Of a DNA stretch of 33,835 bases, positions 8,211 through 26,044 are shown piece after piece. The stretch comes from Candidatus Zambryskibacteria bacterium RIFCSPHIGHO2_01_FULL_43_25 (lineage in GTDB: Bacteria > Patescibacteriota > Minisyncoccia > Phycocordibacterales > Zambryskibacteraceae). Under the pieces are notes generated by a model. It did not search any database, was not told where the DNA came from, and saw only the letters and a program-made list of their open reading frames with translations. The stretch lies in contig MHVD01000009.1 in NCBI GenBank assembly GCA_001823695.1, positions 1 through 33,835 on the forward strand, in the 5' to 3' direction. The translations under genes were made by a program, and so were the position numbers. Within the stretch, counting starts at the first letter, position 1; each line of letters starts with the position of its first letter.

Positions 8211-8636
8211 ATGAATCTTAGAAAAGGTTTTACGCTCATAGAGCTTTTGGTGGTTATAGCCATCATCGGCATCCTTTCTTCAGTTGTGTTGGCAAGTCTC
8301 AACAAAGCCAGAGAAAAGGGAGCTGATGCGGCGGTCAAATCTAACCTAGCCAATGTTCGAGCTCAAGCGGAGCTTGTTTATGACGACACGATACCGAATA
8401 CTTATTTGAATGTTTGTGCCAATCCGACTGTAATGAATGCCAAGGCGGCGGCTGAAGCCGCAGGCGGCGCTGTGGGAATTTGCAACAATACCGCAACTGG
8501 TTGGGCTCTGTCTGTTCAGATGAAATCGCAGGGCTTGTTTGGTGCAGGTTCTTTAACGGACTACTGGTGTGTTGATGGGGGTGGGAAGTCAGAGTTAAAC
8601 GACAATCAGCTGGGCGCTGGTGTGACTGCTTGTTAG
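8211..8636 (+). CDS. Type IV pilin (major-type); alternative start 8175
   Basis: Class III signal KG|[16 protein letters not shown]; C-terminal YWCVD...C; followed by a terminator. Confidence 0.9.
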   Translation: MNLRKGFTLIELLVVIAIIGILSSVVLASLNKAREKGADAAVKSNLANVRAQAELVYDDTIPNTYLNVCANPTVMNAKAAAEAAGGAVGICNNTATGWALSVQMKSQGLFGAGSLTDYWCVDGGGKSELNDNQLGAGVTAC

Positions 8637-8652
8637 TATCTCGCGAAGTTTA

Positions 8653-8685
8653 AAGAAAACCCCCTGTGCACAAGGGGGTTTTCTT
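8653..8685 (+). terminator. Intrinsic terminator hairpin
   Basis: AAGAAAACCCCCT-loop-AGGGGGTTTTCTT perfect 13-bp stem. Confidence 0.8.
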
Positions 8686-8755
8686 GTTTCAGCTGTTCTT
8701 ATATGCTTACTGTAGGCCTACCACTAAGCGCTACCGCATTTTGGGCCGTCCCTCA

Positions 8756-9217
8756 ATGATATTTACTCGTCTTAGCAATAGAGGCTTCACTCTGATAGAG
8801 CTTCTGGTTGTGATTGCCATTATCGGCATACTGTCGTCTATAGTTTTGTCCAGCCTGAACGACGCTAGGAATAAAGCAGGAAACGCCGCTGTCAAATCAA
8901 ATCTGGCAAACATCAGAGTCCAGGCCGCGCTCTATTATGACAGCAATAATACCTATGGGTCTTATGCCTTTAGTCCGTGCCCGATATCAGGCACGGGGTC
9001 GGTGTTCCACGACCCGAATATATTGGACGCAATAAGTTCTGCCAAGACTGCGGGCGGAGACACGACAAATCTAAACAGGTGCTTTGCAAACGCCTCTGGT
9101 TGGGCGGTGTCGGTTCCCTTGAAGAAGAAAGAGGGTCTTTTTGGGCACTGGTGTGTTGACGCCAACGGCGCTTCAATGGGAAGGGCAAGTGCGATTACTA
9201 TTGCATCCTGCCAGTAA
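8756..9217 (+). CDS. Type IV pilin (start corrected from ORF 8666)
   Basis: RG|[16 protein letters not shown]; HWCVD...CQ; the upstream ORF extension overlaps the terminator. Confidence 0.88.
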   Translation: MIFTRLSNRGFTLIELLVVIAIIGILSSIVLSSLNDARNKAGNAAVKSNLANIRVQAALYYDSNNTYGSYAFSPCPISGTGSVFHDPNILDAISSAKTAGGDTTNLNRCFANASGWAVSVPLKKKEGLFGHWCVDANGASMGRASAITIASCQ

Positions 9218-17795: not shown

Positions 17796-17843
17796 CCAAA
17801 ATCATTTTTTGTTATATAGTGTTTTTTGTTTGTCGGGGTAGCT

Positions 17844-17892
17844 CCCCAAACGAAATAACAGTCGACAAGCGACTTATTTCGTACGGGGCAAG
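17844..17892. mobile_element. 49-bp palindromic insertion in the D-stem of the outer tRNA-Met
   Basis: CCCCAAACGAAATA..TATTTCGTACGGGGCAAG; removing it restores GCTCAGTTGGT; homologous to 22624-22672. Confidence 0.75.
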
Positions 17893-17914
17893 CAGTTGGT
17901 TCTTTGGACTTTTA

Positions 17915-18025
17915 CCCCGTTACAGGTTAAATGACGGAGTAGCTCAGTCGGTAGAGCACGGGACTCATAAGCCCGGGGTCGTGGGTTCAATCCCCACCTC
18001 CGTCACATATAAACCTGTTTCGGGG
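17915..18025. mobile_element. 111-bp inverted-repeat-bounded element carrying tRNA-Met
   Basis: CCCCGTTACAGGTT (17915-17928) / AACCTGTTTCGGGG (18012-18025), 12 of 14 complementary. Confidence 0.7.
17933..18005 (+). tRNA. tRNA-Met (CAT), probably elongator (Ile2 not excluded); intact inner copy
   Basis: Full cloverleaf: GACGGAG/CTCCGTC, GCTC/GAGC, CTCATAA loop, GTGGG-TTCAATC-CCCAC. Confidence 0.92.
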
Positions 18026-18134
18026 CATAAGCCTCAGACAGTGGTTCGACTCCACTCATCGGCACAAAAATTATTATAATTTGAAATATGTAAACAGTAA
18101 TAGTAATGTGCTGTCACGTGGTATAATGTAATTA

Positions 18135-18821
18135 GTGCCGATATACAAAAAAGTAAACAGGAGCTTTTTTAAAAAATGGTCACCAAGAATGGCATATATT
18201 TTGGGTTTCTTTGCTGCTGATGGAACAATGATTGCAAACAACAGAGGGGCGTATTTTATTGAATTTCATGTCACTGATAAAGATATAATCTTGAAAATTA
18301 GGAAAGTACTGGGGTCAAATCATAAGATATCAATCCGTGACCGAGGAGTTAAAGAGTGGAAACTTGGGTATCGGTTACAAATTGGAAGTAAGGAAATGTT
18401 TAACGATTTATCGTTATTGGGTTTTAAACCTAACAAATCTAAAAAAATGGAAATGCCCGAAATTCCTACAGAATTAGTCAGAGATTTTGTTAGAGGATAT
18501 TTTGACGGCGACGGCTGCGTCTATTTTAAGAAACATTTTAGAAAAGATAGAAATAAATATAGTTGGGTTTTTACAACCAGGTTTACTTGTGGTACAAGAA
18601 GTTTTTTAGAGTCATTACATAATTTGTTGGATTCCTATGTAACTGGTGGTTATATTACTAACAAACAAAGGGGATATGAACTGGTATTTAGTAAACATGA
18701 CAGTCTTGCTTTATACAAGTTAATGTATCATACTGGTTGTCAAAGTTTATATCTAAATAGAAAATATAGACTTTTTAACAAGGCAATAAAAACCTTGTGC
18801 GGTTCGGATATGCGATCGTAG
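18135..18821 (+). CDS. Free-standing double-motif LAGLIDADG homing endonuclease-like protein
   Basis: YILGFFAADG and FVRGYFDGDG motifs, LGFKPNKS, L.RK; stop codon lies inside tRNA-Asp. Confidence 0.88.
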   Translation: MPIYKKVNRSFFKKWSPRMAYILGFFAADGTMIANNRGAYFIEFHVTDKDIILKIRKVLGSNHKISIRDRGVKEWKLGYRLQIGSKEMFNDLSLLGFKPNKSKKMEMPEIPTELVRDFVRGYFDGDGCVYFKKHFRKDRNKYSWVFTTRFTCGTRSFLESLHNLLDSYVTGGYITNKQRGYELVFSKHDSLALYKLMYHTGCQSLYLNRKYRLFNKAIKTLCGSDMRS

Positions 18822-19102
18822 CTCAACTTGGTTAGAGCACCCGCCTGTAGACGTGCAGCTTCTCCGCTAAAGCGGAGTTGAAACTCTCTGGGATAACGGT
18901 GAAGGCTAAATTCATCATATGATGAACATGCGAATACCGTGGGAACCCCGCTTCGTGGGCGGGGGCGCCGTAGAGACTAGATACCGGAGTACCTAAATTC
19001 GTTAACTGACGAGCACGGTAAAGATATAGTCCACGCCATTATGAAAATAATGGGTATAGTGCACGCGGGAGGTTGCCGGTTCAAGTCCGGTCGGTCGCGC
19101 CA
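18812..19102 (+). tRNA. tRNA-Asp (GTC) split by a group I intron: exons 18812-18848 and 19062-19102
   Basis: Joined exons give GCGATCG/CGGTCGC acceptor, CCCGC-CTGT^CAC-GCGGG anticodon arm, G73 and encoded CCA. Confidence 0.92.
18849..19061 (+). ncRNA. 213-nt group I intron at anticodon position 35/36, no internal ORF
   Basis: Exon ends in U, intron ends in G; P1 CTGT/GCAG with U-G pair; P10 CGTG/CACG; P7 GACTA (18975-18979)/TAGTC (19027-19031) in AAGATATAGTCC; P9 with GAAA loop. Confidence 0.9.
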
Positions 19103-19177
19103 TGAACCATACGGTTCATGGCTGTCCTGCATCGTATGGTGCAGGACGCCATGGTGTATATTGTATGGTATTACACC
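19099..19177. repeat. Three tandem short palindromes with GTAT/ATAC loops
   Basis: GCCATGAACC-ATAC-GGTTCATGGC; GTCCTGCATC-GTAT-GGTGCAGGAC; degenerate GGTGTA..GTAT..TACACC. Confidence 0.7.
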
Positions 19178-19201: not shown

Positions 19202-19453
19202 ATGTATTACGTTTACATTCTTAAATCAGAGGCCGATAAAAAGTTATATATCGGCTATTCTGCAAATTTAAAGAAAAGATTTCAGGAACATCAAGATGGG
19301 AGGGTTAGGTCTACAAAGCCAAGAAGGCCTTTTGAGCTTATTTTCTATGAGGCATATAAAAGTAGACTAGATGCCAAAAGAAGAGAAAAGTATTTCAAAA
19401 CTGATAAAGGGAAAACGACCATAAAAACTATGTTAGAAAAATCTTTAGCTTAA
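19202..19453 (+). CDS. Small GIY-YIG nuclease family protein
   Basis: YYVYIL...LYIGYS.NLKKR...H, ST..RRP, AKRREKYFK. Confidence 0.9.
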   Translation: MYYVYILKSEADKKLYIGYSANLKKRFQEHQDGRVRSTKPRRPFELIFYEAYKSRLDAKRREKYFKTDKGKTTIKTMLEKSLA

Positions 19454-19500
19454 ACTCTACGATTAGGGATTTTTTGGTTCTAACTTGGTATACTCTTTTG

Positions 19501-19929: not shown

Positions 19930-19997
19930 TTCTAACATTGCTCACCACAGTAGTGGGATATAAATCACTACGGGGCAGGCTAGTTCGCGCGTCGGTT
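19930..19997 (+). repeat. 68-bp direct repeat, copy 1
   Basis: 67/68 identical to 21160-21227; contains a GTAGTG/CACTAC hairpin ending CGGGGCAGG. Confidence 0.9.
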
Positions 19998-20120
19998 TTT
20001 CTCTAGTGTTTAAGCCATTAAAATCTATTGAAGAGGGGGTTAATTGTTCTCTTTTACACCATTAAGTGTTATGGTAAAATTAAAGTAGAGGGTGTTTTAT
20101 TATTAATAGGCTTATTTTTT

Positions 20121-21137
20121 ATGAAGAAAAAAATTGTTTTTTCGGCGATAATTTTATCGTTTTTCTTTTTTGTTTCTAGCCAAGTCTATGCTCAATCTTC
20201 CTACTCATCTCTTAATGAAATTGGTAAACAGTTAGAACAAGCTTACCAACAACTCCAAACACTAACACAAAACCTAACTGGCAAACTTACGGCAGCAACA
20301 GCAGGCTATAACACTCCAACAGTTGATTTAAAGGCAAATACTTTTGATGGCCCAATAACAGTTTCTTCTGGTTCAAATGTAATACTTTATTGGGTTGCTA
20401 CGAATACAGACTCTTGTACTATTTCTGGACCGAATTTGAGGACTTTTTTAGAAGGAGACAGTTCAATGCCTTTCAGCGGATCAGTAAATTCAGGGTTCTT
20501 AACAATGAATACAACGTTTACCATAACATGCACTGGTCCTGGGGGTACTGCTTCAGATAGCGTAACGATTAATGTGCTTACAATCAGCCCACCAATCATT
20601 TCAGACTTGAAAGTAAACTATTCTACTAGCCCCGTTACAGTTGCTTCCGGTTCAAGTGTTTCTATTAGCTATGTCGCAAGAAAAGCGGATTCATGTAATG
20701 TTTCTGGACCACTTGCGTGGAAATATTCCGTAAAAACTTCCGAACCATATCCGTCAACAGAAGTTTATATACAGGGTTGGGCAGGGTCAACAGCTCTGAC
20801 CGCAAACACAACATTTACTATTACTTGCACGGGTCCTGGAGGTACTTCTTCAGCCAGCGTAACTGTTTATGTGGCGAAGGGGGTCCCTTCAGTCACAATC
20901 TCAGCCAATCCAACGACTGTTATTACAGGTCAATCATCGATACTCTCTTGGTCTTCAACTAATGCAACTTCATGTACAGCAGGGGGAGGATGGAGTGGAT
21001 TAAAGTTAACAAGCGGATCTCAAGTAGTCGCACCGACTCAAAGAACAACTTATACTTTAACCTGTTGGGGTCCTGGAGGTAATATTTCAGGTAGTGTAAT
21101 AATTGATACTACACTCAATAAAACATTGATACGGTAA
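20121..21137 (+). CDS. Secreted Ser/Thr-rich surface protein with three Ig/PKD-like repeats
   Basis: Signal peptide (VYA|Q), three repeats ending T(F/Y)T(I/L)TCxGPGG. Confidence 0.8.
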   Translation: MKKKIVFSAIILSFFFFVSSQVYAQSSYSSLNEIGKQLEQAYQQLQTLTQNLTGKLTAATAGYNTPTVDLKANTFDGPITVSSGSNVILYWVATNTDSCTISGPNLRTFLEGDSSMPFSGSVNSGFLTMNTTFTITCTGPGGTASDSVTINVLTISPPIISDLKVNYSTSPVTVASGSSVSISYVARKADSCNVSGPLAWKYSVKTSEPYPSTEVYIQGWAGSTALTANTTFTITCTGPGGTSSASVTVYVAKGVPSVTISANPTTVITGQSSILSWSSTNATSCTAGGGWSGLKLTSGSQVVAPTQRTTYTLTCWGPGGNISGSVIIDTTLNKTLIR

Positions 21138-21159: not shown

Positions 21160-21227
21160 TTCTAACATTGCTCACCACAGTAGTGGGATATAAATCACTA
21201 CGGGGCAGGCTAGCTCGCGCGTCGGTT
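21160..21227 (+). repeat. 68-bp direct repeat, copy 2
   Basis: 67/68 identical to 19930-19997. Confidence 0.9.
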
Positions 21228-21238
21228 ATACTTAATAT

Positions 21239-21511
21239 ATGGAATTTAATTTTCTCACTGCGGGGCTTATATTTTTTGCGTATATATTAATTGATGGGAT
21301 GTATGCCTACTATACTCAGTCTATTGTAAAAAAGAGAGCTGTCATCTCTGCAACCACAGGTGCCCTAATGCATTTTCTAATTGCCTTCGGAGTTCTTAAC
21401 TATGTTCAAAATTTCTTGTATGTTGTCCCTCTAGCTCTAGGTTCTTGGGTCGGAACTTATCTTGTAGTAAAGAATGACCGCAGTTCTAACATCATCAAAC
21501 CTCGGACGTAG
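21239..21511 (+). CDS. Small hypothetical membrane protein (about 3 TM)
   Basis: Hydrophobic 90-aa ORF with an AT-rich ATG context. Confidence 0.65.
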   Translation: MEFNFLTAGLIFFAYILIDGMYAYYTQSIVKKRAVISATTGALMHFLIAFGVLNYVQNFLYVVPLALGSWVGTYLVVKNDRSSNIIKPRT

Positions 21512-22017: not shown

Positions 22018-22503
22018 ATGCGTTTGAATGTTCCATATTTCAAACAGGATTTCATATATTCCTGCGGTCCTGCGGCTGTCCAAATGGTTTTGGCTTATTT
22101 CCACATAAGAGAGTCAGAAAGCAATCTGATTGAAGAACTAGGTGTTAGTGAAGAGATGTGGTCATCTAACAGTCTGATGATAGAAGTGTTTAGGAAAAGA
22201 GGTTTATACTGTTATGTGAATAAAGATGGCACCTTGGAACAGATAAAAAACTTTTTGGAAGAAGGAATTCCGGTCGTAGTAAATTACATAGAACCATCAG
22301 CCGAGGACGGTCACTTCGCGGTGGTTGTGAATCTGACGGATAGCGTGATTGTTTTGAATGACCCGTGGAATGGAGAAAATTTTGTGTTGAATAGGGAAGA
22401 GTTTCTGAATCGCTGGCATTCAAAATATGACGATGCTTCTAGGTGGTATTTGGCAGTTTCTGATAAAGATTTTGACCTGGGCAAAAGATACAGGCCAGTT
22501 TAA
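22018..22503 (+). CDS. Peptidase C39-like cysteine protease
   Basis: VPYFKQ...SCGPAA (Q, C), GHFAVV (H), LNDP (D). Confidence 0.85.
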   Translation: MRLNVPYFKQDFIYSCGPAAVQMVLAYFHIRESESNLIEELGVSEEMWSSNSLMIEVFRKRGLYCYVNKDGTLEQIKNFLEEGIPVVVNYIEPSAEDGHFAVVVNLTDSVIVLNDPWNGENFVLNREEFLNRWHSKYDDASRWYLAVSDKDFDLGKRYRPV

Positions 22504-22623
22504 ATGTTTCCCGTAATGGTATTATAAGTCCACGGTCGTGTATTTATTATACCGTCGTTGAAAATAGTGTTTCTGTATATTATGATTCGTCTGTTCTTTC
22601 TGATTTTTTATGCCGTTGTAGCT

Positions 22624-22672
22624 CCCCAAACAAAATATCGGTTAACAAGCAACCTATTTTGTACGGGGCAAG
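22624..22672. mobile_element. 49-bp palindromic insertion, homologue of 17844-17892 at the same tRNA position
   Basis: CCCCAAACAAAATA..TATTTTGTACGGGGCAAG. Confidence 0.75.
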
Positions 22673-22679
22673 CAGCTGG

Positions 22680-22719
22680 CCCGCCCGCAACGCATGAGCG
22701 GCTAGCAATGGCGAGCGGG
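22680..22719. mobile_element. 40-bp CCCGC...GCGGG palindromic insertion in the D-loop
   Basis: CCCGCCCGC...GCGAGCGGG directly before GAGC of the D-stem. Confidence 0.65.
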
Positions 22720-22727
22720 GAGCATGT

Positions 22728-22802
22728 GCCAGAGTAGTTCAGTGGTAGAACGCCTTCATGGTAAGAAGGAAGTCGGGAGTTCAATTCTCCCCTCTGGCTC
22801 CA
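22728..22802 (+). tRNA. tRNA-Thr (GGT), intact inner copy
   Basis: GCCAGAG/CTCTGGC, GTTC/GAAC, CCTTC-ATGGTAA-GAAGG, TTCAATT loop, encoded CCA. Confidence 0.93.
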
Positions 22803-22981
22803 GAATTAGACCTTCGGATTTTTGACCAGCCATTTCGTGGGCGGCGCACAGTGCCACCCATGCTTCGGACCCTTCTGTTTCTTTTTTTACAAAAAAACAA
22901 AAATGTCTTTTGTGTCGGTTTGTCAAGGTATTGGCTGATGGATATATATACTTATCAACATCCGTACGATATAATAAAATC

Positions 22982-25432
22982 ATGAAAAATAAAATTATTA
23001 GTTTGGCAATAGTGGGATTATTATTAGGAGGTTCATTAGGAGTACCATTAGTGCAGGCACAAACATCGAGTCAGCAGTCAACTCTTTTAGCGTCCTTTAG
23101 CCAAATTAATGAGGCTTTTATACAACTTTTAGCCTCGGTTATAAATGCCCTGGCAGGGCAAGAAGAAGAAAATATAGAAAATGACAATACTACTCTTCCC
23201 CCAGTTTTGAGTCTCTCGCAGTACACAGTTGATCTTCTCAATATCGCGAATGAGTTGAAACAGGCCCCAGCCGCAAAAAAGCAGGCAGCTACAGACCGTT
23301 TGTCAGAATTTGTTCAAATCAGAAAAGATGCCATGCTCCAAGAAATAAAAAATAACCCACAAGCGGTTATTAATAACGCTCTCCCCGCTTGGGCAGTCTC
23401 GCAATTACCACAGAATGTTATCAGCTTTGTAGAACAGCGGAAACAGATCCGCGGTAAATTTCAATATCTGGACGTTCATTACGGTGACTTTTATACCGGC
23501 ACAGCCGCTAATGAATTTTATGTAACCGAAAGTGGTACTGGCAAGCGCTATCGGGTTCATCTTACGGGAAGCCCGCAGGCCCTCACCGGCGATATGGTTG
23601 TCATTGACGGCATAATTCTTGACGATCAAATCGCGACCACAGAAAAATCAATCCAGGTTATTTCTTCTCCTAATAGGACAAGGTCTTCGACGTCGGCCGC
23701 TACCCCTTCTCTCTTGAGTAAAATTATAAACGCACTTGGTCGCAAGGTCGCCAATGCGCAAACAACTACCCCGATTCCCAAAAAAGTAGCGGTTATCATG
23801 TTTAATTGGCAGAACGATACGCGCACTCTGTCAGTGTCGGCCGCCAAGGGGACCGTTTTTACCAACTCGAACTCATCCAACAGCTTTTACAAAGAGAATT
23901 CATTCGGCAAAATTGAACTCGTCGGCAAATACCAATCAGATGGCGATGTTTTCGGTATGGTTACAGTGCCTTATGACAATTCAAACTGTAGCACTATGTA
24001 TAGCGTTTGGTCTGACGCCGCGGATGCCGAAGTGCAGAGATTGGGTTTTGATCTTTCAGGATACGATATAAAAACATATTTGTTTCCTTCAGTTGCTTGC
24101 GGATGGTCGGGTATAGCAGAAGTTGGTGGTTATCCAGCTCGGTCTTGGATCAGAAGTACCGATTTGGGCGTCATAACCCATGAATTGGGTCATAATCTAG
24201 GTTCCCATCATGCAAGCTCTTGGTCGTGCACAGAAAGCGGGGTTAGGGTGCCGATAGGCCAAGATATGAATTGTGTGATAGGGGAATATGGCGATCCGTA
24301 TGATGTTATGGGTTTAGGCGGCATGAGACATATAAATAATTCTCACAAAGATACGACCGTCTACTTCTCCTCACTGGATTGGCTAGATGATCAAAATATA
24401 TTTACAATAGATCGCAATATTGCACCTGATGCCACATACACCATTACTCCGATTGAATGGTCGTCTGCCGGCGTACAGGCGCTTCGCATTCCCAAAGATA
24501 TTTCCCCAACCGGATATCCTGAAACTTATTATTATCTTGAATTTCGCCAGCCTTTTGGATTTGATGACTTTGCCGCTTCCAGTCCTCCGGTAAATGGAGT
24601 AACTATTCGCATCGCAACTGATTACAATTTTATCGTGAAAAGCAGGCTGGTAGATACTACACCATCAACTTATGATTTTACTGACGCTCCCTTGGCAGTA
24701 GGCAAGACATTTACTGATCCATATAAACAGATTAACGTAACCACGCTCTCGGTTGCACCAGCAGAAGCTCAAGTGCGGGTATCTTTTGGGGCAGTGCCTT
24801 GTATACAAGCGAATCCTTCATTCTCGATAAATCCGACTAGTGCCTCGCTTTATGCCGGACAATCGACGTCATTTGCTTATACTCTTACCAATAATGATAC
24901 AACATCTTGTCCTTCCTCTAATTTCAGTATCACTCCGACTCTTCCAGCTGGTTTTAGTCAAAGTCCTTCACCTATAAATCATTCTCTGGCCGGCGGGACG
25001 GGAGTTTCGGGAACGCTTATCATAAGCTCTCCAACTGCCGCAACCGCAGGTTCTTACTCTATAACCGAGACGGCTCAAAATACTTCTGTCCCAGGCAACT
25101 ATCAATCAACGGCAACTCTTACCATGAATATCCTTTTGCCTGATACGATTCTGCCTATTGTCACGATCAATTCGCCCGCCAATGGAGCCACTGTGTCAAA
25201 AGGAAATGTTCAGATTGTCGTTTCGGCATCCGATGCAAGCGGAATAGCTCAAATACAAATCTTGGTTGATGGTGTATTGAAAAAAACCTGCTTTAACACT
25301 ACTTCTTGTTCAGGAACAGTGAAAGCGAATGGCCTGACAGTAGGAACGCACAATATCACCGCGCAGGCTACGGATAAAGGCGGGCCTGTCGCGAATACCG
25401 CAACCGCTTCGATTACTATTATCAAAAAGTAG
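22982..25432 (+). CDS. Secreted zinc metalloprotease (M11/gametolysin-like) with C-terminal Ig-like domains
   Basis: Signal peptide, HELGHNLGSHH zinc motif, EYGDPYDVMG Met-turn, YYLEFR, Ig-like tail (PIVTINSPANGATV, SDASGI). Confidence 0.85.
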   Translation: MKNKIISLAIVGLLLGGSLGVPLVQAQTSSQQSTLLASFSQINEAFIQLLASVINALAGQEEENIENDNTTLPPVLSLSQYTVDLLNIANELKQAPAAKKQAATDRLSEFVQIRKDAMLQEIKNNPQAVINNALPAWAVSQLPQNVISFVEQRKQIRGKFQYLDVHYGDFYTGTAANEFYVTESGTGKRYRVHLTGSPQALTGDMVVIDGIILDDQIATTEKSIQVISSPNRTRSSTSAATPSLLSKIINALGRKVANAQTTTPIPKKVAVIMFNWQNDTRTLSVSAAKGTVFTNSNSSNSFYKENSFGKIELVGKYQSDGDVFGMVTVPYDNSNCSTMYSVWSDAADAEVQRLGFDLSGYDIKTYLFPSVACGWSGIAEVGGYPARSWIRSTDLGVITHELGHNLGSHHASSWSCTESGVRVPIGQDMNCVIGEYGDPYDVMGLGGMRHINNSHKDTTVYFSSLDWLDDQNIFTIDRNIAPDATYTITPIEWSSAGVQALRIPKDISPTGYPETYYYLEFRQPFGFDDFAASSPPVNGVTIRIATDYNFIVKSRLVDTTPSTYDFTDAPLAVGKTFTDPYKQINVTTLSVAPAEAQVRVSFGAVPCIQANPSFSINPTSASLYAGQSTSFAYTLTNNDTTSCPSSNFSITPTLPAGFSQSPSPINHSLAGGTGVSGTLIISSPTAATAGSYSITETAQNTSVPGNYQSTATLTMNILLPDTILPIVTINSPANGATVSKGNVQIVVSASDASGIAQIQILVDGVLKKTCFNTTSCSGTVKANGLTVGTHNITAQATDKGGPVANTATASITIIKK

Positions 25433-25441
25433 ACACGTTCT

Positions 25442-25479
25442 TAAGCTAAAAATCGTTCCTCGGGGCGATTTTTAGCTTA
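25442..25479 (+). terminator. Terminator-like hairpin
   Basis: TAAGCTAAAAATCG...CGATTTTTAGCTTA perfect 14-bp arms. Confidence 0.8.
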
Positions 25480-25645
25480 TGGAGAAAGACCGCACAGTAC
25501 GAATGAAAAAGTCAGGATAAACTTTTACTCGCTGGCCGTCCAATACCCTACCATCCGTTCGAATACTTGGAAAACAAGTGACGGGGTTTCCTTAGTTCAG
25601 GAATTTTTGATAAAGTGAGTTCGAGCACAGTCGTAAAGATACTCA

Positions 25646-25706
25646 AGTATTGCCACCTTAGCTCAGTCTTGCCCGCCAAAATTTTGCCAGAGTAGCTCAG
25701 TTGGTA
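25646..25706 (+). repeat. 61-bp direct repeat, copy 1 (copy 2 at 25804-25864)
   Basis: AGTATTGCCACCTTAGCTCAGTCTTGCCCGCCAAAATTTTGCCAGAGTAGCTCAGTTGGTA identical in both places. Confidence 0.9.
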
Positions 25707-25797
25707 CCCGCCCGAACGACTGACATCGTTCAGTCGGGCGGGGAGCATTCCCATGGTAAGGGAAAGGTCATCGGTTCAATCCCGATCAACGGCTCCA
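25686..25797 (+). pseudogene. Chimeric tRNA-Thr(GGT): foreign 5' end, 36-bp D-loop hairpin (25707-25742) and the original 3' half (25743-25797)
   Basis: TTCCC-ATGGTAA-GGGAA anticodon arm and intact T arm; local 5' GCCAGAG has three mismatches against CAACGGC. Confidence 0.75.
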
Positions 25798-25825
25798 AGA
25801 TTTAGTATTGCCACCTTAGCTCAGT

Positions 25826-25948
25826 CTTGCCCGCCAAAATTTTGCCAGAGTAGCTCAGTTGGTAGAGCGACGCACTCGTAACGCGTAGGTCCCCGGTTCA
25901 ATCCCGGGCTCTGGCTCCAAAAACTAGCAAAAACTTAGGCGGGTGAAG
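25826..25948. mobile_element. Palindromic element carrying tRNA-Thr(CGT)
   Basis: CTTGCCCGCCAAAATTTTGC ... GCAAAAACTTAGGCGGGTGAAG imperfect inverted arms. Confidence 0.7.
25844..25919 (+). tRNA. tRNA-Thr (CGT), intact inner copy
   Basis: 76-nt cloverleaf GCCAGAG/CTCTGGC, CTCGTAA loop, encoded CCA. Confidence 0.93.
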
Positions 25949-26044
25949 CAGAGCGACGGTATCGTAAACCGTAGGTCCCCGGTTCAAGCCCGGGAGGTGG
26001 CTCTTGAAAAATATGTGGTTGTTAGTAATATAAGTAACGCACCT

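Follow-up and report, generated by a model that had tools for sequence, protein, structure and literature searches.

Pieces of an old tRNA-Thr(GGU) gene enclose a replacement tRNA and a predicted protease gene in a Zambryskibacteraceae genome

Integrase-driven islands that enter a transfer RNA (tRNA) gene restore it, with partial copies of the tRNA left behind as direct repeats, and the dispersed palindromes known as REP elements are moved by HUH Y1 enzymes (REP/RAYT; cf. IS200/IS605). The arrangement considered here is of another kind: an older tRNA-Thr(GGU) gene survives as a 5′ and a 3′ remnant, with a complete gene for a tRNA of the same anticodon and a gene for a predicted secreted metalloprotease between them. 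The whole lies at 22.6-25.8 kb of a 33,835-nucleotide (nt) contig, MHVD01000009.1 (contig C9, all of it referred to as the window), of Candidatus Zambryskibacteria bacterium RIFCSPHIGHO2_01_FULL_43_25, a member of the Patescibacteriota whose genome is 0.6 Mb in 23 contigs. The reading favoured here, with some reserve, is that the locus is an ancestral Thr(GGU)-Thr(CGU)-prfB cluster after several separate events, and not one mobile unit. Literature searches gave no published description of nested or replaced tRNA genes in bacteria of the Candidate Phyla Radiation (CPR), in which tRNA genes seem to have been replaced repeatedly by small selfish cassettes. (Genomes of the family are labelled G, homologue or hairpin loci L and the genome's own contigs C, each with a number.)

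Phage T4 SegB is a free-standing GIY-YIG homing endonuclease encoded in the T4 tRNA gene cluster; it targets a conserved motif of tRNAs and promotes the inheritance of its own gene along with neighbouring tRNA genes (PMC2330249). A GIY-YIG gene among tRNA genes is also what cassettes of the present bacterial family show. However, SegB homing is between phages, and the available part of that report mentions no old gene fragments or hairpins (PMC2330249), whereas the family cassettes interrupt cellular tRNA genes, with nested remnants and hairpin repeats as their marks, and the window locus has no nuclease gene. The Ssn proteins, site-specific single-stranded DNA nucleases with hairpin repeats (NTS/SRM), offer a second likeness: they are small GIY-YIG proteins of a single domain, their genes have dispersed hairpin repeats on either side, and they cut near these repeats, but the available part of their description reports no link to tRNA genes or replacement gene copies (Chenal et al. 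2025, PMC11893778). In the archaeon Caldiarchaeum subterraneum a tRNA-Thr(GGU) fragment lies 1.8 kb upstream of the complete gene, so that there too inserted DNA separates a 5′ fragment from a complete gene; according to the part of the report available, the inserted 1.8 kb include a recombinase gene and recur six times (Sugahara et al. 2012, PMC3293823). In contrast, the window locus is bacterial, without a recombinase, and its insert is single-copy with a protease gene as cargo. Unlike the integrase islands, it has no integrase inside or beside it, is broken in the D-arm and not the 3′ half, and supplies a whole replacement tRNA rather than a 3′ end. Any likeness it has to the REP/RAYT and IS200/IS605 systems would lie in dispersed palindromes and in three Y1_Tnp genes in the genome, two of which (on C15 and C21) have a palindrome copy nearby.

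Two overlapping pieces of one old gene

Four tRNAs are called in the window by ARAGORN and Rfam: two tRNA-Met, Thr(GGT) at 22728-22802 and Thr(CGT) at 25844-25919. The third of these, which the initial annotation had recognised as intact, lies in the following arrangement.

22558-22586, + strand: promoter-like site (TTGAAA, 17 nt, TATGAT), a consensus match only, ~25 nt before the old tRNA start
22612-22624, + strand: 5′ remnant of old tRNA-Thr(GGU), with acceptor GCCGTTG, TA and D-stem GCTC; 13/13 nt as in the intact gene of relative G080
22624-22675, + strand: module of the hp1 hairpin family, CCCC...GGGGCAAGCAG, inserted at tRNA position 12/13; 78 bits with covariance model R1; fold z = -2.2
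22676-22727, + strand: CTGG (old D-loop residue), hairpin hp2 (22680-22719), GAGCAT (old positions 22-27) and GT, as read from the sequence
22728-22802, + strand: replacement tRNA-Thr(GGU), acceptor GCCAGAG/CTCTGGC, CCA encoded; ARAGORN, Rfam 67 bits
22982-25432, + strand: gene for the predicted secreted metalloprotease, 816 amino acids (aa), with signal-peptide-like N-terminus, Peptidase_M11-like domain and C-terminal Big_7
25442-25479, + strand: perfect 14-bp inverted repeat after the protease gene, terminator-like, not called by the terminator scan
25578-25649, + strand: conserved non-coding module, 79-88% identity in 9/85 family genomes
25646-25706, + strand: exact duplicate (100% identity) of the 61 nt at 25804-25864, unnoticed in the initial annotation
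25707-25742, + strand: hp2′, a member of a dispersed palindrome family, with GGTA before it and GAGC after it in the D-loop; fold z = -4.15
25743-25797, + strand: 3′ remnant of old tRNA-Thr(GGU), positions 22-76 plus CCA; partial tRNA match of 26.6 bits, and comparison with G080
25811-26003, + strand: neighbouring nest, an old tRNA-Thr(CGU) (GCCACCT...AGGTGGC) split in its D-loop, with the working Thr(CGU) at 25844-25919 inside

The locus had been described as a tRNA-Thr(GGT) split in two, with perfectly paired acceptor strands and a junction common to both pieces. The pairing is there: GCCGTTG (22612-22618) is exactly complementary to CAACGGC (25787-25793). It is insignificant alone, for the window has 8 occurrences of CAACGGC where chance would give 3.0. 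What settles the shared origin is the intact tRNA-Thr(GGT) of G080, which starts GCCGTTGTAGCTC, ends CAACGGC, and matches the window in its first 13 nt and in the acceptor 3′ strand. On that comparison, the 5′ and 3′ pieces are assigned to one old tRNA-Thr(GGU) lineage. The shared junction is also present, with CCCGCCCG...CGGG-GAGCAT at both 22680-22725 and 25707-25748, and it is this which shows that the pieces are not clean halves. The left piece spans old positions 1-27 (past hp1 come CTGG, hp2 and GAGCAT) and the right piece positions 22-76 (after hp2′ come GAGCAT and the remainder, the whole reading GAGCATTCCC-ATGGTAA-GGGAA...CAACGGC-T-CCA). Because GAGCAT, positions 22-27, follows the hairpin in both, the pieces overlap and are not complementary halves. 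They differ, too, in that hp1 is on the left only, in the hairpin interiors, which are unlike, and in the D-loop, CAGCTGG on the left versus CAGTTGGTA on the right. The 3′ remnant keeps its ancestral place directly before Thr(CGU).

The two junctions differ in age. Left hp2 (22680-22719) folds no better than shuffled sequence (z = -0.6), and hp2′ is a strong hairpin; C2 and C4 have near-identical copies of it, and C15, C17 and C21 have variants. Taken with the overlap of the pieces, these folding properties, the dispersed near-identical copies and the exact 61-nt duplicate show a left junction that is old and diverged and a right one that is fresh. The flanks of the hp2′ copies reveal no fixed target. 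In three other broken tRNA copies (two in G091, and G098; 3/86 genomes including the window's own) the family sits at the same GGTA^GAGC. The 61 nt comprise spacer, the 5′ end of the old Thr(CGU), the stalk and positions 1-21 of the inner Thr(CGU); the stalk is that of the insert (GCCCGCC/GGCGGG) which carries the working Thr(CGU) in the neighbouring nest. Their final 14 nt (TAGCTCAGTTGGTA) are the same as positions 8-21 of the old Thr(GGU), as in G080. That the right end has 61 nt identical to the adjacent locus points to local rearrangement. [Simple tandem duplication by unequal crossing-over was considered and rejected, as what precedes the first of the two 61-nt copies bears no relation to the remnant.]

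The conserved module at 25578-25649 directly precedes the duplicated tRNA start. It is just upstream of gene starts in some relatives, and is on the same contig as prfB in G008, G068, G082 and G066. We infer that it may be a promoter module restoring Thr(CGT) transcription behind the protease terminator. At the other end of the locus, the promoter-like site at 22558-22586 now probably drives the replacement tRNA. The 179 nt after this tRNA gave no convincing match among 85 family genomes.

Three observations in relatives touch on these elements. In G002 and G004 (loci L100 and L102, ~1270-1530) tRNA-Thr(GGU) has an insert of ~190 nt in the anticodon loop after ATGGT, group I intron-like by appearance, within which are the 15 nt of the hp2′ palindrome core, CCCGAACGACTGACA; this hints that insert and palindrome family may share ancestry. 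In G008 (L238; 1640-1715 and 6390-6470) a 12-nt copy of its own 5′ end, followed by GTCTTGGTAGGTC, precedes each Thr gene, and the window's Thr(CGU) insert starts with the same GTCTTG. In G076 (L273, ~1318-1385) there is a tRNA-Thr(GGU)-like gene with the acceptor GCCAGAG/CTCTGGC but no D-arm, uncalled by ARAGORN, in which the anticodon stem comes straight after GCCAGAGTAGC.

Hairpin modules, nuclease cassettes, protease homologues and the empty site

The hp1 module recurs widely. Model R1 was built from 8 copies, among which the aligned stems show compensatory changes; it finds matches in 26/86 family genomes, and 33 copies were examined. In the window's own genome they are in tRNA-Met (17844), tRNA-Thr (22624), fusA (C17:15935) and rpsS (C17:24784) (a fifth and weaker match, C17:12037 at 34.6 bits, is outside the examined copies), and in relatives the hosts are secA, uvrA, rpsS and several tRNAs. 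In 9 of the 33 copies the start of the upstream gene is repeated 30-75 nt downstream, scoring 18-40 versus controls of at most 14. In the tRNA cases a complete new tRNA begins ~20-165 nt after hp1 (60-110 nt in most; ~165 at L139), and in five loci (L137, L148, L136, L141 and L139) the old 3′ remnant lies 15-105 nt beyond it. Across the 33, a fresh start or new tRNA, if one is recognisable, comes within ~110 nt of hp1 (up to ~165 nt at L139), in every case with no intervening open reading frame (ORF), and copies without a recognisable fresh start have no ORF over that distance either. The window locus is typical in that its new tRNA starts 52 nt after hp1, and atypical in the 2.9 kb, protease gene included, which separates new tRNA from 3′ remnant.

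A second hp1 nest in the window, that of tRNA-Met at 17833-18050, consists of the old 5′ end (GTCGGGGTAGCT), hp1, a complete tRNA-Met at 17933-18006 and the old 3′ part, which extends from the anticodon loop to CATCGGCA.

Nested forms with cargo do exist in the family, but the cargo is a GIY-YIG gene upstream of the new tRNA and not a protease gene downstream of it. G098 Thr(GGT) and G091 Ala(TGC) both have old positions 1-21, a hairpin, old positions 22 to ~34, an ORF of 79-81 aa for a GIY-YIG protein which stops on the tRNA's own TAG at positions 8-10, and a complete tRNA. A simpler form in G091 Thr(CGT) (L288), with hairpin, GAGCAC, TAA and new tRNA, mirrors the window's GAGCAT, GT and new tRNA. 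In the window's own genome, a GIY-YIG gene stands between an old 5′ part and a new tRNA at both tRNA-Cys (C4) and tRNA-Gln (C6). Of this genome's 12 GIY-YIG loci, 5 have a tRNA no more than 100 nt away, where random placement would give 3.4%. (The products of these genes have the Pfam GIY-YIG domain and weak matches to UPF0213 structures.)

As claimed initially, no recombinase ORF is present within 22.6-25.8 kb. The only Phage_integrase and Resolvase matches of the genome, one gene of each type, are on C19 and C6. With no recombinase inside or beside it, and with flanking repeats that differ internally, the locus is not an integrase-type tRNA genomic island.

The claim of an M11-like protease gene between the pieces also stands. 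The 816-aa product, with Peptidase_M11 (25.2 bits versus a Pfam cut-off of 21) and Big_7 domains, has the motif HELGHNLGSHH, of which H400, E401, H404 and H410 are invariant in 17 aligned sequences; with a score above cut-off and an HExxH motif it fits the Peptidase M11 (gametolysin) family and is a predicted protease. The terminator attributed to it is represented by the perfect inverted repeat at 25442-25479, though the terminator scan did not call it. The one other ORF of at least 80 aa between the pieces is antisense within the protease gene, and the G+C of the insert (0.42-0.47) is the same as that of the flanks. The best homologues are 57-60% identical, and the family is patchy across CPR, Nitrospirota, Omnitrophota and archaea. 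A whole-protein query did not find the protease in 40 relatives (3 gave matches to the Big_7 tail only and 37 nothing), and a single-protein search of the genome contig collection returned no close relatives; viral contigs had relatives of only 28-36%, and the 3′ half of the new tRNA was not found there. An alignment-based search gave 80 loci in genome contigs and 80 in metagenome contigs, of which 30 and 20 respectively were scanned for tRNAs. In none of these 50 loci does the homologue adjoin tRNA-Thr, a check that the initial annotation had proposed. Four (L019, L023/L168, L157 and L032) are within ~700 nt of any tRNA, three of them within ~410 nt, which is about the chance rate from tRNA density, and an Rfam e-value scan found no partial tRNAs at L157, L019 or L023.

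L019, from a Saccharibacteria metagenome-assembled genome, has the best homologue in the genome collection (51% identity). At 8370-8790 of this locus tRNA-Ser(GCU) is followed by two more copies of its last ~20 nt at ~150-nt spacing; these repeated ends look like scars of repeated integration.

An empty site, for which a comparison of relatives had been suggested, was found in G080. There, an intact old Thr(GGU) is followed after 5 nt by an old-type Thr(CGU) (GCCACCT/AGGTGGC) and then prfB. Since the outer, split Thr(CGT) of the window (25811-26003) has the same acceptor pair, G080 serves as empty site for both nests; the old-type Thr(CGU) is intact in G010 also. The two Thr tRNAs are at most 40 nt apart in 11 of 29 family loci upstream of prfB. 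In at least five relatives the gap between Thr(GGT) and Thr(CGT) is filled: by 724 nt with an ORF in G058, 350 nt in G043, an ORF behind an 18-nt old remnant in G003, an HNH-like ORF (judged from its translation alone) in G004, and 4.7 kb with four genes, two of them Pfam-matched (Radical_SAM and DUF3105), in G008. In all five the gap DNA is unrelated and Thr(GGT) is complete. By this comparison the gap is an insertion hot spot.

Separate events or a single mobilisation

On the simplest account, the locus went through three or more events: its tRNA was replaced in the hp1/hairpin manner, a passenger gene entered the hot spot, and recombination took place recently. In the replacement, an incoming Thr(GGU) would have superseded the resident gene. 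It would lie ~50 nt past the hp1 that interrupts the old gene at position 12/13, leaving the old promoter and first 13 nt upstream, where the promoter probably transcribes the new tRNA. This would follow the standard design of a small hairpin cassette bringing a fresh gene start, with a GIY-YIG nuclease, as carried by related cassettes, the likely mobilising enzyme in trans. The protease gene, which has a start region and a terminator-like repeat of its own and precedes the conserved non-coding module, would be a passenger that settled in the gap after Thr(GGU). A recent recombination may have brought together this arrangement and another copy, or allele, of the old gene, one with the hp2′ palindrome, either at the 14-nt D-arm identity of Thr(GGU) and inner Thr(CGU) (TAGCTCAGTTGGTA) or at the hairpin; such a join would account for both the exact 61-nt duplicate and the overlap of the old pieces. 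If so, the locus exemplifies a replacement process meeting ordinary gene gain, with the pieces of a broken essential gene enclosing an accessory one, and cautions against taking every split tRNA with cargo inside for one element.

Several findings weigh against this account. The old remnants bracket the whole 3.1 kb, as they would after one insertion. Junctions exactly 6 nt past a hairpin recur (GAGCAT|GT here, GAGCAC|TAA in G091), which also fits a hairpin-guided nuclease moving one long segment. The nest flanks have no GIY-YIG remnant (the best match has E = 0.028 over 16 aa), and for the hairpin-linked GIY-YIG proteins of G091 and G098 the nearest counterpart in the genome has an identity of only 38%. 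None of the contigs examined bridges hp2′, a repeat node. None of the genomes compared shows an intermediate state, be it the nest without protease or protease without right remnant, so we infer the order and number of events.

The initial annotation had proposed a cargo-carrying form of a nested-tRNA element. Part of this holds, as an old gene is broken around new tRNA and protease, and cargo forms do exist in the family. What such an element would entail is that one long segment (hp2, new tRNA, protease gene and tRNA 5′ end), bounded by two successive D-loop sites, one in a Thr(GGU) gene and the other in Thr(CGU), moved into the old gene at GGTA^. The agent could be a GIY-YIG/Ssn-like hairpin-guided nuclease, one of the three Y1 HUH transposases (two have their genes close to palindrome copies, on C15 and C21) or recombination with one-sided homology. 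The resulting layout, old 1-21, hairpin, old 22 onward, cargo, tRNA 1-21, then 22-76, is that of the G098 and G091 GIY-YIG cassettes, and like the G091 form it breaks exactly 6 nt after the hairpin; movement between two D-loop sites would, moreover, yield the same right junction. However, the left junction, CAGCTGG|hairpin, lacks the target's TA and its hairpin is diverged, whereas the right junction is pristine, so the two ends differ in age. As the right end is identical to the adjacent locus, any donor would be a sister chromosome, and no second copy of the block was found in genome, metagenome or viral contig searches. The overlap and differences of the old pieces, the local 61-nt duplicate, the absence of an intervening gene from all 33 hp1 copies, the GIY-YIG nature of the family's cargo, the lack of linkage of protease homologues to tRNA-Thr and the unrelated gap inserts elsewhere also tell against it. 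Movement as a single unit is on these grounds possible but unlikely. Somewhat more doubtful again is the general proposition that hairpin-guided nucleases of ultra-small bacteria can mobilise everything between two tRNA D-loop sites, occasionally carrying accessory genes, here for a secreted protease, between genomes. Were it true, it would be integrase-free gene movement in organisms with very few conventional mobile elements, and the cargo would be hard to lose because an essential tRNA gene is broken and a spare supplied.

Could the right junction instead be an error of assembly, with repeats causing a wrong join of the 3′ remnant to the protease segment? hp2′ is a 36-nt repeat with many loose ends in contig graphs, and no contig examined spans it. 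Support for the assembled form comes from Logan contigs of public runs X1, X2, X3 and X5 (the source sample may be among them, so they are not independent support). Contigs in X1 and X3 cover 22300-22842, left junction included, with 0 differences, and 22822-25626 is one contig in X1, X2 and X3, with depth equal to the flanks in three runs. From unique sequence at 25597 a contig enters the first 61-nt copy (X1 and X3; to 25706 in X3), and a 66-nt contig, 25768-25833 (X1 and X2), joins the remnant to the second copy. The 61-mer itself is a separate contig at ~2.5-3.9x flank depth (40.9 versus 16.6 in X1, 50.1 versus 13 in X2). With the remnant at its ancestral distance from Thr(CGU), and both repeats short enough to be spanned by ordinary-length reads, a misassembly is improbable. 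No contig in the four runs joins 22624 to 25743, the empty-site or excised joint for which a search had been proposed. [Joints that skip ~3 kb as an empty site would were seen, but their sides are only 20-27 nt at 90% likeness, and they are probably from tRNA genes of other organisms.]

That the outer pieces might be joined, or held by the hairpins, to give a functional second tRNA-Thr(GGU), split or intron-bearing, is the least credible of the alternatives. It is true that the acceptor strands pair perfectly and that the D-stem GCTC/GAGC can close over the left insert. But the pieces overlap instead of complementing each other, the right one is fused to a 5′ end that does not pair with it (GCCAGAG with CAACGGC gives 4/7 pairs), a protein gene with a terminator-like repeat intervenes, and a complete Thr(GGU) is present. 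We know of no bacterial machinery for such tRNA splicing.

Other cassettes in the window

The region from 17.6 to 26 kb is crowded with selfish nuclease cassettes. At 18808-19103 is a tRNA-Asp(GUC)-like gene whose anticodon loop is interrupted by a group I intron (Rfam Intron_gpI at 41.6 bits, under the cut-off of 50). ARAGORN missed this gene, and no second tRNA-Asp is called in the genome. Its counterpart is intact in G003, and in G008 an intron above the cut-off occupies the same synteny position. A LAGLIDADG endonuclease ORF (18135-18821) ends within the start of the tRNA-Asp-like gene, and a small GIY-YIG ORF (19202-19453) follows it behind two hairpins; on C19 the same hairpin pair comes after a tRNA-Arg, together with a broken GIY-YIG gene. 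Next is a methyltransferase ORF starting at 19474, whose Pfam match is limited to the first half of the model (CMAS, positions 6-140/273). Downstream of it, two 73-nt direct repeats, 19930-20002 and 21160-21232, which are 96% identical, bracket an ORF at 20028-21137; an ORF after the second repeat (21239-21511), conceivably the part that the methyltransferase lacks, has no Pfam match. Each of the 73-nt repeats contains a hairpin and the ACGGGGCAGGC tail of hp1.

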